IMG/VR virus record: IMGVR_UViG_3300037840_000188
Location: 1 to 64,000 of that record
Origin: a virus
DNA length: 64,000 nt
Strand: one strand, 5' to 3'
In this document: positions 10,056 to 12,907 of the stretch, piece by piece
How the letters are laid out: the number at the start of each line of letters is the position of its first letter
How positions within the stretch are numbered: position 1 is the first letter of the stretch
Position numbers and translations under genes: made by a program
The notes under the pieces: generated by a model
Told to the model about the DNA's origin: nothing
The model's database searches: none
What the model saw: the letters and a program-made list of their open reading frames with translations, nothing else

Positions 10056-10331
10056 ATGGCTCATTCTACAAAATCCGCCCCATCTATCGAACTTTCACTG
10101 CCAGATCGCCTGCGCGTCCTGATCGCAGCCGCATTCGATGTGGAATCCGTGCGCGACCAGGATCGGCTCGATCAGTGGCCTTCGCTGGATTTTATGGAAG
10201 CCGTCGTTGCCTGCGAGCGTCACCTCGGCCTGGGCGAAACTGACGAAGACAGGTTGATGAAGTGCGAGACGGTGGGGCATCTTGTAGCTATCTTCAACGT
10301 TCCCATCTCTATCCAGGAGCCTGTTGTTTAA
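10056..10331 (+). CDS. acyl carrier protein-like protein
   Basis: 91 aa, acidic; WPSLDFMEAVVACERHLG...ETVGHLV resembles ACP (D)SLDxxE..F..I...TVGD. Confidence 0.55.
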   Translation: MAHSTKSAPSIELSLPDRLRVLIAAAFDVESVRDQDRLDQWPSLDFMEAVVACERHLGLGETDEDRLMKCETVGHLVAIFNVPISIQEPVV

Positions 10332-10768
10332 TGCAGGCCGCTCGCGAAGTCACCGATGACGGTAATACTAAATGGGTCGATTGCAGCGGCTGCAAGCACC
10401 CGCGACCGTTCTCCTGGTACACAAAAGACGTACACACTCTGCTTGGGATCGGCTACCTATGTCGGTCGTGCAGGCCGAAGGGGAACAAGCTGAAAGTCGT
10501 CGATCCAGATTATGAGGTGATCCGCACGGTCAACGCAAAGCCCCTGCGCCCAGAGAAAGAAAAGATGGCCGCTGGGTCATGGGAACGTGTGGTGAGGCGC
10601 GCGGCGCTATGTGCGCAATATGAATGCGTAATTGTCTATGTTGGAAAAGAAAATTACCTTTCCCGTCAGTCCGCGCTATCAGGCCTTCATCTCGCGGCGA
10701 AGAGAATGAAAATGAAGATCTCCATTCGACATGGTCGAAGTGAATTATATGTAAAAGTCAAGGAGTGA
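10331..10768 (+). CDS. Zn-ribbon protein with basic C-terminal domain; contains the gapped match to the pentamer array
   Basis: CSGC...CRSC; region 10634-10677 matches array dinucleotides. Confidence 0.6.
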   Translation: MQAAREVTDDGNTKWVDCSGCKHPRPFSWYTKDVHTLLGIGYLCRSCRPKGNKLKVVDPDYEVIRTVNAKPLRPEKEKMAAGSWERVVRRAALCAQYECVIVYVGKENYLSRQSALSGLHLAAKRMKMKISIRHGRSELYVKVKE

Positions 10769-10773
10769 CAAGC

Positions 10774-10941
10774 ATGAAGGCGAAAAAGAAAAATAAGGCA
10801 GCTCAAAATCTTGTCGCGATGAGAAATAAAAAACTATCCCCAGCGCGCCGAAAAGAAATAGCACAGAAAGCAGCACAAAAAAGATGGAAAAATAATGCTT
10901 ACGAAAGCATTGACGTGAAGCCTCCCGCGAGTATAAAGTAA
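10774..10941 (+). CDS. small basic protein (LSPxRRxEIAxKAAxxRW motif)
   Basis: 55 aa ORF read by hand: MKAKKKNKAAQNLVAMRNKKLSPARRKEIAQKAAQKRW..; AAGGAG RBS. Confidence 0.6.
   Translation: MKAKKKNKAAQNLVAMRNKKLSPARRKEIAQKAAQKRWKNNAYESIDVKPPASIK
10910..10939 (+). promoter_or_regulatory. sigma70-like promoter of the RAMP gene, probably leaderless
   Basis: TTGACG 10910-10915; TATAAA/TAAAGT 10932-10939; ATG at 10946. Confidence 0.55.
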
Positions 10942-10945
10942 GCAC

Positions 10946-11554
10946 ATGGCCAAACAAACAGCACTTGAGCCCGTATCAAATGACGCCGAATCCGTAATCG
11001 ACATCAGTCAGCCATATGTAGCGCTCGTCAGTGTAGTTGGCACTGCACCGTTTCTCTTTCATCGTTGGAGCGTCGAGGGTGTGGACGCAAAGGCGAAAGC
11101 GGCTAAGGGATCAAAAGCCAAGAGGTCAGACGATCTTGAATCTTACGTCTACCGTAATATGAAGGGCGAACTTTGCATTCCGGGCGAATATCTGCGCATG
11201 GCGATCATTGGAGCCGCCAAGTTCCGACAAGATCCGCGCTCTCCCCGAAAGAGCGCAATGGATCTTTTTAAGGCTGGTGTTGTCGCAATTGAACCTCTTT
11301 GCTCGCTCGGCGTTTCTGACTGGTCATATGTCGATCAGAGGCGCGTGATGATCCAGCGTAATGGCATTACCCGATCCCGTCCGGCAATGGAATCCGGATG
11401 GAAAGTAGACTTTCTGATTCAATGCCTTCTGCCGGAGTACATTCCAGCCGATACCCTCAATGAAGTAATTCAGAGCGCGGGAAGGCTTATCGGTATGGGA
11501 GATTTCAGGCCGACGTACGGGAGGTTCCAAGTTACAGGTTTCGAGATTTCTTGA
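10946..11554 (+). CDS. stand-alone Cas7/RAMP-like RNA-binding protein
   Basis: N-terminal strand VSVVGTAPFLFH, LCIPGEYLRMAI (IPGxxxK/R-like), R-P thumb region, C-terminal Gly loop AGRLIGMGDFRPTYGRFQV; no other cas genes in window. Confidence 0.7.
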   Translation: MAKQTALEPVSNDAESVIDISQPYVALVSVVGTAPFLFHRWSVEGVDAKAKAAKGSKAKRSDDLESYVYRNMKGELCIPGEYLRMAIIGAAKFRQDPRSPRKSAMDLFKAGVVAIEPLCSLGVSDWSYVDQRRVMIQRNGITRSRPAMESGWKVDFLIQCLLPEYIPADTLNEVIQSAGRLIGMGDFRPTYGRFQVTGFEIS

Positions 11555-11570
11555 GTTTTGAAAAAACTTC

Positions 11571-11655
11571 GTGGTGTGGTTAGGTGTGGAGGGGCAAGAT
11601 AAGGTTAGGATTGGATCGGAAGGGTCAGGCTCGGCGCGGTTTGGCAAGGCATGGT
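11571..11655 (+). repeat. array of 17 tandem NN-GGN pentamers (putative guide ncRNA, about 11553-11702)
   Basis: gtGGT gtGGT taGGT gtGGA ggGGC aaGAT aaGGT taGGA ttGGA tcGGA agGGT caGGC tcGGC gcGGT ttGGC aaGGC atGGT; 16/17 units have GG at positions 3-4. Confidence 0.9.
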
Positions 11656-11702
11656 GCTGATTCTGGTTGATTTTAAGTAATCACCAGAATCAGCTTTACT
11701 TT
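11656..11702 (+). terminator. hairpin closing the pentamer array
   Basis: GCTGATTCTGG-T-TGATT / AATCA-CCAGAATCAGC stem followed by TTTACTTT. Confidence 0.75.
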
Positions 11703-11719
11703 GAAAGGAATAAAATTAC

Positions 11720-12010
11720 TTGACTTTGTCATACGCAGCGACACTAAGAACTGAAAGACTCCTGCCGCGTCCGATTGTATACTACGGCTCTACTTATGAA
11801 TCGGTGGAAGGAGTAGCTCAAAAATGGTTACAAGCCAATGGTGAGCACGGTGATTCTTTCGTTATCATCGAGAACGTACCTGTCGAGCGCGCAGTGATTG
11901 AGTGTCAAAAGCCGAAACGAGAAAGAGTATACAAGGGCCACGCATTCGTGTCCGGGCCGAACCTGAATCGGTGTGATGTTTGTGGACGGAAAGAAGAGGA
12001 GCACAAGTAG
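11720..12010 (+). CDS. hypothetical protein
   Basis: TTG start after AAGGA; C-terminal H..CxxC..H. Confidence 0.5.
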   Translation: MTLSYAATLRTERLLPRPIVYYGSTYESVEGVAQKWLQANGEHGDSFVIIENVPVERAVIECQKPKRERVYKGHAFVSGPNLNRCDVCGRKEEEHK

Positions 12011-12907
12011 ATGAGAATCGTAGAGCCAGAAGTCTATCTACTGGCGCAGACCAGCATGGATGTAAAACCGCCAAAGGCATTTCGCGGAAACTTGCAGGCT
12101 TATCTTGAAAAAGTGGGAGTTGCCGAATGGAAGACAACGGCATGTACAGACGGGGAAATGCTCGTGGAGGTGGCTGGACGCCTCTGCTATAAAGCTTTCG
12201 GTTTGGGCTTGAATGCCAACGTCACTAAAGTCCGAGAGGGTAATCAGATTTACCTGGAGAATCTCGCCAAGCAGGATCACGGGTCAGTACAGGAGCATTC
12301 GACGGTTACATTTTTATTCCGAGACGTGAGTCGCATCCTGACGCATGAACTCGTCCGGCATCGCGTTGGCGTAGCGATATCCCAGGAATCCGGACGGTAC
12401 GTCAGAGCCGATGACGTTGGTCTTTACATCCCGGAATGCTTCAAGGAATGCCCCGGCACAGTCGATATGATCAAGACCCATGTCGAAGCTGGCGAGGATT
12501 TAGCTCGCCGTTTGACGATAGCGTTCGATCTGGACAATCCGAAGACGGCTTTCGCCCGAAAGAAGGAAGTGACTTCGGCACTCCGCCGTTTTGCTCCGTT
12601 CGGCCACTCATCGTCGCTCGTGTGGACCACCAATCACCGCAATCTTCGCTTCGTTCTCCAGAAGCGAACCGAGGGTGGCGCGGAAGAAGAAATTCGCAAA
12701 CTCTTCGATCCGGTTGGTTACGGCATGAAGGAGATGTTCCCAAATCTGTATCAGGATATTTACCGTCGTGAATCCGGGGAATGGGTGTCGAAATTTTCAG
12801 CGCGTGGTTTGGCGGATGACCTAAGAAGGTTGATTGCCAGTGGGCCAGATGGCGGCGTCAAAAATTCCAGCGGAATCGAGGCACTCCTGAAAGAGCGGGG
12901 ACTCTGA
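12011..12907 (+). CDS. thyX: FAD-dependent thymidylate synthase
   Basis: HGSVQEH, THELVRHRVGVAISQESGRY (RHRx7S), R...AEEEIR motifs. Confidence 0.93.
   Translation: MRIVEPEVYLLAQTSMDVKPPKAFRGNLQAYLEKVGVAEWKTTACTDGEMLVEVAGRLCYKAFGLGLNANVTKVREGNQIYLENLAKQDHGSVQEHSTVTFLFRDVSRILTHELVRHRVGVAISQESGRYVRADDVGLYIPECFKECPGTVDMIKTHVEAGEDLARRLTIAFDLDNPKTAFARKKEVTSALRRFAPFGHSSSLVWTTNHRNLRFVLQKRTEGGAEEEIRKLFDPVGYGMKEMFPNLYQDIYRRESGEWVSKFSARGLADDLRRLIASGPDGGVKNSSGIEALLKERGL

Follow-up and report, generated by a model that had tools for sequence, protein, structure and literature searches.

A vrRNA guide in an uncultured phage fits a non-resident allele of the adjacent gene more closely than the phage's own copy

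A 64,000-nucleotide stretch of phage DNA (hereafter the window), part of an IMG/VR record of 140,995 bp that CheckV rates as complete, carries a cassette of the Viral Interference Programmable Repeat (VIPR) type with a single guide. This cassette probably targets a non-resident allele of the gene next to it, present in related phages that lack the cassette, while the resident copy is mismatched by an extra GAA codon and by changes at first codon positions. The guide matches such an allele clearly better than the resident one, the extra codon is a derived insertion, and a syntenic contig lacks the cassette at the corresponding position.

VIPR systems consist of a Vipr protein and a guide RNA, the vrRNA (bioRxiv 10.64898/2026.04.26.720920, 10.64898/2026.04.26.720927, 10.64898/2026.10.15.759431). 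In the vrRNA, GGY alternates with NN, and Vipr belongs to the RAMP proteins; the NN dinucleotides pair with target dsDNA while one target base per unit, usually the wobble position of a codon, is skipped, a "1-nt skip" rule for which there is experimental proof in other VIPR systems (10.64898/2026.04.26.720920). Natural targets are competing phages and satellites, which are silenced transcriptionally, and they are called at an NN match of at least 80% with no gaps; all published target calls are gapless, and the surveys report no self-targets at or above 80% (10.64898/2026.04.26.720920). Cryo-EM revealed one Vipr protomer per repeat in a filament on the guide RNA with periodic base flipping, where GGY is buried and a skip pocket takes a single nucleotide; the guide:target geometry is fixed at 5:3, and engagement was suggested to start at the tail-proximal end (10.64898/2026.04.26.720927). 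Self-match scores were found to be lower than non-self scores, which was reported as a strategy to avoid autoimmunity, a six-unit footprint of SUSP1 vrRNA4 was reported to be functional, and neither the vipr targets nor the satellite targets were, by that account, covered by the phage's own homology (10.64898/2026.10.15.759431). The three preprints hold no data on tolerance to mismatches, wobble pairs or bulges (10.64898/2026.04.26.720920, 10.64898/2026.04.26.720927, 10.64898/2026.10.15.759431). Repeat tracts of the characterised clades have 9-16 units. VIPR and its wobble-skipping guide code have thus been known since the 2026 publications and are not new here.

The repeat tract of the window (11571..11655, plus strand) comprises 17 units of the form NN-GG-Y, the NN pairs of which constitute the guide. 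It starts 17 bases past the vipr stop codon, and all pentamers are in register. GG is present in 16 of the 17 units, the sole exception being unit 6 (AAGAT, 11596..11600), whose AA fits the lysine codon of the resident gene (AAA) as well as that of the syntenic contig, L081 (AAG); four units read GGA. Units 6-15 (11596-11645) are AAGAT AAGGT TAGGA TTGGA TCGGA AGGGT CAGGC TCGGC GCGGT TTGGC, and read as the first two positions of successive codons the whole guide spells V-V-Y-V-G-K-N-Y-(F/L)-S-(R/S)-(H/Q)-S-A-(F/L)-(K/N)-(I/M). RNA folding predicted a small 5' hairpin that separates the first unit from the stop codon of vipr (AGUUUU-GAA-AAAACU, 11553..11570, plus strand) and, beyond the last unit, a 16-bp hairpin followed by a U-rich stretch, a putative vrRNA tail or terminator (11656..11702, plus strand). 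The inverted repeat within this tail (11656-11667 and 11683-11694) is 100% complementary.

No second pentamer tract was found in the whole 141-kb genome. Tandem Repeats Finder returned nothing at the array because its units are too variable, no Rfam family covered the region, and a search for direct-repeat (CRISPR) arrays and for further cas-like genes nearby found neither. A guide made by joining the whole triplets between the GGs gave only background in a search of the window (27/51); reading NN against codon positions 1 and 2 was the only scheme that worked.

The vipr gene (10946..11554, plus strand) is predicted to encode a 202-aa stand-alone RAMP protein of the Cas7/Csm3 kind. The top PDB matches that Foldseek returned for its AlphaFold2 model (pLDDT 88) were Csm3, type VII Cas7 and Cas7-11, with E-values of about 1e-6, and a G-loop-like motif, GxGDFRPxYGR, was invariant across 40 homologues. 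Judging from the model, Vipr is a small RAMP-fold protein with a single RRM, a G-loop and a thumb. It matches phrog_4652, which has no known function, and no Pfam family was found for it. IMG/VR yielded 146 homologues, most of them with flanking GGYNN arrays. Most of the 80 loci that we fetched likewise have GGYNN tracts, which range from 8 to 123 units and lie on the strand of the gene, upstream, downstream or on both sides of it. Across 2791 units in these 80 loci, GG is kept in 91-97%, the following base is a pyrimidine in 92% and NN is near-uniform.

Using tblastn against 50,697 phage records, we retrieved only two Vipr homologues, one with 58% identity in Phage DSL-LC04 and one with 27% (E 3e-5) in Pseudomonas phage LESphi2; SUSP1 was not retrieved. 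The corresponding genes, at 2001-2618 of L092 (OR003939.1, DSL-LC04) and 1830-2414 of L091 (OQ594955.1, LESphi2), carry the GenBank labels 'helix-turn-helix transcriptional regulator' and 'hypothetical protein', and in both phages unannotated YNNGG arrays lie upstream. LESphi2 has three of these, of 11-12 units each, between a sigma-factor gene and the Vipr homologue and near the CI repressor gene. Very long unbroken GGYNN tracts were also seen among the related loci, namely at L030:3119-3622 (61 + 39 perfect units) and L012:2366-2977 (123 units), and L048:1523-4438 holds four tracts of 48-115 units each. They far exceed the 9-16 units of the characterised clades and show no obvious separating tails.

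The gene upstream of the cassette (10331..10768, plus strand) encodes a 145-aa CxxC...CxxC zinc-ribbon protein of unassigned function, which had only weak, zinc-ribbon-type PHROG matches and no relative in the PDB. Within it we located a near-target of the guide (10631..10684, plus strand), matched at codon positions 1 and 2. An earlier note on this DNA had described the internal mismatches and the extra codon of this match correctly. The NN pairs of units 2-15 equal the first two positions of 14 in-frame codons (10634-10678) at 25 of 28 bases once a single surplus codon of the gene is allowed for. The codons read GTC TAT GTT GGA AAA [GAA] AAT TAC CTT TCC CGT CAG TCC GCG CTA, where the bracketed Glu codon (10649..10651, plus strand) lies between units 6 and 7 and breaks the 5:3 register. 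The three internal mismatches are at unit 9 (TT vs CTT), unit 11 (AG vs CGT) and unit 15 (TT vs CTA). To these the end units add three mismatches that the note had left uncounted, at unit 1 (GT vs ATT), unit 16 (AA vs TCA) and unit 17 (AT vs GGC). Three of the four single-base differences are transitions that could form wobble pairs.

With the gap allowed, this site is the best match in the 141-kb genome, with a score of 15, where shuffled guides averaged 10.4 (sd 0.9) and one of 300 reached 15. Units 2-6 match at 10/10, and units 7-15 taken alone match at 15/18, which makes the site the single best in the window for this half of the guide (next best 13). Without the gap the resident site reaches only 16/34 or 19/34, and no ungapped self-target at or above 80% was found in the 141-kb resident genome, the best being 20/34, at null level. 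Guide and gene match in the same sense, which would make the template strand the guide's pairing partner.

A markedly better match was found outside this genome. Among 5.8 billion clustered proteins, the only close relative of the resident zinc-ribbon protein was P0002 (61% identical), encoded on L081, a 1.4-kb Logan contig. The L081 site, GTG GTC TAC GTA GGT AAG AAT TAT TTT TCC AGA CAC GCG GCA ACT AAC GGG, has no Glu codon and carries GT at unit 1, TT (TTT, Phe) at unit 9 and AG (AGA) at unit 11. Without any gap, in frame and skipping codon position 3, the guide matches it at 29/34 (85%), including 24/24 over units 1-12, which passes the published criterion; 5000 shuffled guides reached at most 23. 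Its departures from the guide are concentrated in units 13-17, beside the tail. The note had proposed that the guide is aimed at a competitor's homologue, and that a search for homologues with TTR or AGR codons could bear on this. L081, with TTT and AGA where the resident gene mismatches and with no Glu codon, supports the proposal, and it refutes the possibility, raised there too, that no homologue matches the guide better than the resident copy.

L081 itself is unlikely to be the intended target. At the eight read positions where the resident gene and L081 differ, the guide has the L081 state at five, the resident state at two and neither at one, while its indel state is that of L081. The guide is therefore a mosaic of the two, and the true target is most likely a third, unsampled allele. 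No perfect 34/34 target was found, and exact 14-unit and 12-unit patterns of the guide were absent from IMG/VR, JGI metagenome contigs and GTDB genomes; a protein search for target-gene loci in IMG/VR and JGI metagenomes also gave none. HMMER found 18 more distant relatives of the target protein. The wider family alignment was too divergent for use, and the distant homologues on L083, L085 and L086 matched the guide at background level (16-19/34). In an alignment of 15 family members the Glu residue is missing from all 14 others, so the insertion is specific to the resident gene and falls within the footprint of the guide.

Carrying the published geometry over to the window suggests how discrimination might work. 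As described for other VIPR clades, Vipr protomers would polymerise on the vrRNA, one per unit, with GGY buried, and each NN would pair with dsDNA at a fixed ratio of five guide bases to three target bases; binding of this ribonucleoprotein would silence transcription in competing phages. The intended target would be the conserved segment of the zinc-ribbon family, in the form of the non-resident allele of cassette-free phages. In the resident gene, the GAA insertion would put the stretches on either side of it out of register with each other, leaving at most units 2-6 or units 7-15 in register, and the first-position differences at units 1, 9, 11 and 15 would weaken the match further, so that the resident copy may be immune. 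Partial binding to self is possible, given that units 7-15 match at 15/18 and that a six-unit footprint is reported to be functional elsewhere. L081, in turn, may not be silenced efficiently, its mismatches lying at the suggested engagement end.

The earlier note had also held that all internal mismatches between guide and resident gene are synonymous swaps, and this stands in part. The Arg swap (AGA/CGT) is synonymous, but the TT unit of L081 encodes Phe (TTT), and unit 15 fits neither the resident gene nor L081 well. If nothing but position 1 is altered, only CTA/TTA stays silent; CTT becomes TTT (Phe) and CGT becomes AGT (Ser). Synonymy of all three mismatches is nevertheless possible, as the guide does not read position 3. 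That all three Leu/Arg codons belong to the other codon family has, by our own estimate, p ~1/27 if synonymous sites are saturated, and gives a mild hint of selection for discrimination. The Leu/Arg pattern is a consequence of the genetic code: with reading confined to codon positions 1 and 2, alleles that preserve the protein have no room to differ except at the first positions of Leu and Arg codons or through (conservative) replacements. On the sequences compared, the larger difference between self and non-self is the inserted GAA codon, not recoding.

The AAGAT unit is indeed the only one without GG, and it does lie at the extra codon (11596-11600 against 10649-10651), as had been remarked. 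The idea that it marks a collapsed unit or a programmed bulge did not hold up: the guide is collinear with all other family members through unit 6, and a collapse would need two separate deletions, of 3 and 2 nt, which the gapless family alignment contradicts. We estimate the post-hoc probability of the adjacency to the gap together with the shared GA at a few per cent. About one unit in ten lacks GG in related arrays, for example those of LESphi2 and DSL-LC04, and a single degenerate unit in an array of 17 is thus nothing unusual.

The cassette (10769..11719, plus strand; 951 bp) holds a small ORF, vipr and the vrRNA. In L081, the homologue of the target gene is preceded by a homologue of the window's upstream gene and overlaps (ATGA) the homologue of the 96-aa downstream flank gene (11720..12010, plus strand). 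Positions 10769-11719 have no counterpart in this syntenic arrangement, which indicates that the cassette was inserted exactly between two genes in the window. The footprint of the guide lies 91-135 bp upstream of the cassette junction, on the strand of the cassette. The small ORF (10775..10941, plus strand) encodes a Lys-rich 55-aa product with a weak phrog_2384 match (E 9e-4) and could be an accessory (vap-like) gene. It lies between the target gene and vipr and was not found in related Vipr loci, which have an upstream vrRNA array at this place instead. It is also the only further ORF of the cassette, in which Pfam and PHROGs recognised neither a vap gene nor, in any ORF, a nuclease domain.

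The genes neighbouring the cassette in the window did not occur in any of the 80 Vipr-related loci, and the target is thus no conserved accessory gene of VIPR. Conversely, no Vipr gene or array was found near family members of the target on the five contigs that carry them, within the sequence fetched (1.4 kb for L081). A 15-nt inverted repeat (10748-10762 and 11719-11733, 13/15 complementary) has one arm at each edge of the cassette, within the end of the flanking gene; the matching L081 sequences do not form it, and it could be a chance occurrence or a remnant of the insertion. The second gene past the cassette, on the same strand, encodes the flavin-dependent thymidylate synthase ThyX (12011-12907). 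If the homologous operon of a rival were silenced from the target site, genes such as this one would be affected too.

We also searched the arrays of related loci for near-targets in cis. Among 124 arrays, only those of the window and of L070 had cis near-targets above shuffled controls. The L070 array begins directly after the stop codon of a gene for a Sak4-like ATPase and matches that gene at 29/36; its mismatches are conservative replacements (K/R, S/C, V/L, V/I) plus one Leu CT/TT swap, and at some of these positions homologues on other contigs carry the state of the guide. A second vrRNA, at L088:2199-2285, shares the insertion site and the tail of L070 and has a different NN guide. Read against the antisense strand of the Sak4-like ATPase gene, this guide matches its own copy at 24/38 and that of the cassette-free contig L089 (1893-1949) at 29/38, with units 2-10 at 18/18 and the wobble position as the skipped base (null maximum 25). 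The differences between self and non-self at L070 and L088 are mostly conservative replacements. Together with the window, these two loci show that targeting of alleles of the cassette-adjacent gene, with a poorer match to self, recurs in the clade.

Three other explanations of the match have to be weighed against targeting of a non-resident allele. That the dinucleotide-codon match and its mismatches are coincidental deserves mention because the pattern was found after the fact, with register, step and segment freely chosen. Yet the gapped self-match lies ~5 sd above shuffled guides genome-wide, an independent homologue matches at 29/34 against a null maximum of 23, and the 1-nt-skip rule is experimentally established elsewhere; L081 and the shuffle scores effectively refute a chance origin, to which we give next to no credence. 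Alternatively, the similarity might merely record where the guide came from, such as an older allele of the neighbour, with no present target and a vrRNA that is decaying or repurposed. The failure to find a perfect target in IMG/VR, JGI metagenomes and GTDB genomes would fit such a relic, as would one degenerate GG, four GGA units and the mosaic of resident-like and L081-like states. GG in 16 of 17 units, an intact vipr and an intact tail hairpin argue for maintenance instead, and the family is so sparsely sampled (two close members in 5.8 billion proteins) that failure to find a perfect target is expected. As the pattern of neighbour-allele matching was seen again at L070 and L088, we consider a relic quite improbable.

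The guide might instead serve autoregulation, with the vrRNP binding the resident site through units 7-15, or with the extra codon bulged out, and tuning the operon that runs into the cassette. The position of the site, 91-135 bp upstream on the same strand, is suggestive, and so are the partial matches of 15/18 (units 7-15) and 10/10 (units 2-6) when set beside the six-unit footprint reported to function elsewhere (10.64898/2026.10.15.759431). The non-GG unit abuts the gap, and the internal mismatches at units 9 and 15 would be rU:dG pairs, a remark of the earlier note that is sound as base-pair logic. Against this, the non-resident allele is matched clearly better and without a gap, the insertion is derived and confined to the resident gene, and the tail-proximal units 16-17 are unpaired with that gene. 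Moreover, the published geometry has each protomer skip one base, no published target call contains a gap, and the published surveys contain no self-targets at or above 80%. We thus regard autoregulation as unlikely, and targeting of a non-resident allele in cassette-free relatives as the better account of the data.

Many of the features described here are those of known VIPR systems: a small stand-alone RAMP gene, tandem YNNGG/GGYNN repeats of at least four units on the same strand, a predicted structured 3' tail, NN pairs that match a coding target with one base per unit skipped at the wobble position, a best target in another phage and no gapless self-target at the published threshold. The window differs in that its uncultured 141-kb phage has one vrRNA only, of 17 units, and no recognisable vap gene, and in that tblastn with its Vipr did not retrieve SUSP1 and gave only 27% identity to a Pseudomonas prophage homologue. 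It differs further in its probable target, a homologue of the gene that stands beside the cassette in the phage itself, and in the codon insertion that sets the resident copy apart, a form of self-avoidance not found in the VIPR preprints. With the backbone proteins of class 1 CRISPR-Cas systems (Csm3/Cmr4/Cas7, Cas7-11) the predicted Vipr shares an RRM/RAMP fold, a G-rich loop and a thumb, and VIPR in general shares a guide-RNA filament with periodic base flipping. In contrast to those systems, the window has no repeat-spacer array or other cas genes, and its guide has a period of 5 nt, of which two bases are read, against a target period of 3 nt.

The arrangement also resembles the free-standing homing endonuclease cassettes (Seg/Mob) of T-even phages, which spread by intronless homing. 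Both are inserted precisely between two conserved genes, and in both the site that is recognised lies near the insertion point, in the neighbour gene of relatives that lack the cassette; the resident allele is polymorphic at this site. The cassette of the window differs in that no nuclease domain was detected; VIPR systems of its kind are known to bind and silence rather than cut, and copying of the cassette into the target genome is a conjecture. It is conceivable, though on balance doubtful, that the cassettes of this clade behave as selfish elements to which immunity is linked, each sitting directly after the gene whose cassette-free alleles it targets; this would amount to a counterpart of intronless homing that needs no nuclease. 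A protective allele, whether a codon insertion or substitutions at read positions, would lie ~100 bp from the junction and travel with the cassette, and silencing of the rival allele during co-infection would favour the spread of the cassette and the immune allele together; recombination provoked by an R-loop triplex could act likewise. Such an arrangement is present at three loci, namely those of the window, L070 and L088.

Two details were not found in the VIPR preprints: an in-frame codon insertion as a means of self-avoidance, and a cassette located beside the gene that it targets. On the sequence evidence, the locus may be a natural example of how a VIPR phage could target homologues of its own gene without silencing itself. 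A code that reads two bases and skips one removes escape through the wobble position, which leaves Leu/Arg swaps, conservative replacements and in-frame indels, and the resident gene shows both Leu/Arg swaps and an in-frame indel. Set against a rigid 5:3 register, the insertion of a single codon yields a simple prediction for self/non-self discrimination and for the escape of targets. The occurrence of the cassette beside its target gene at three loci hints at how cassettes and their guides may be selected and spread.
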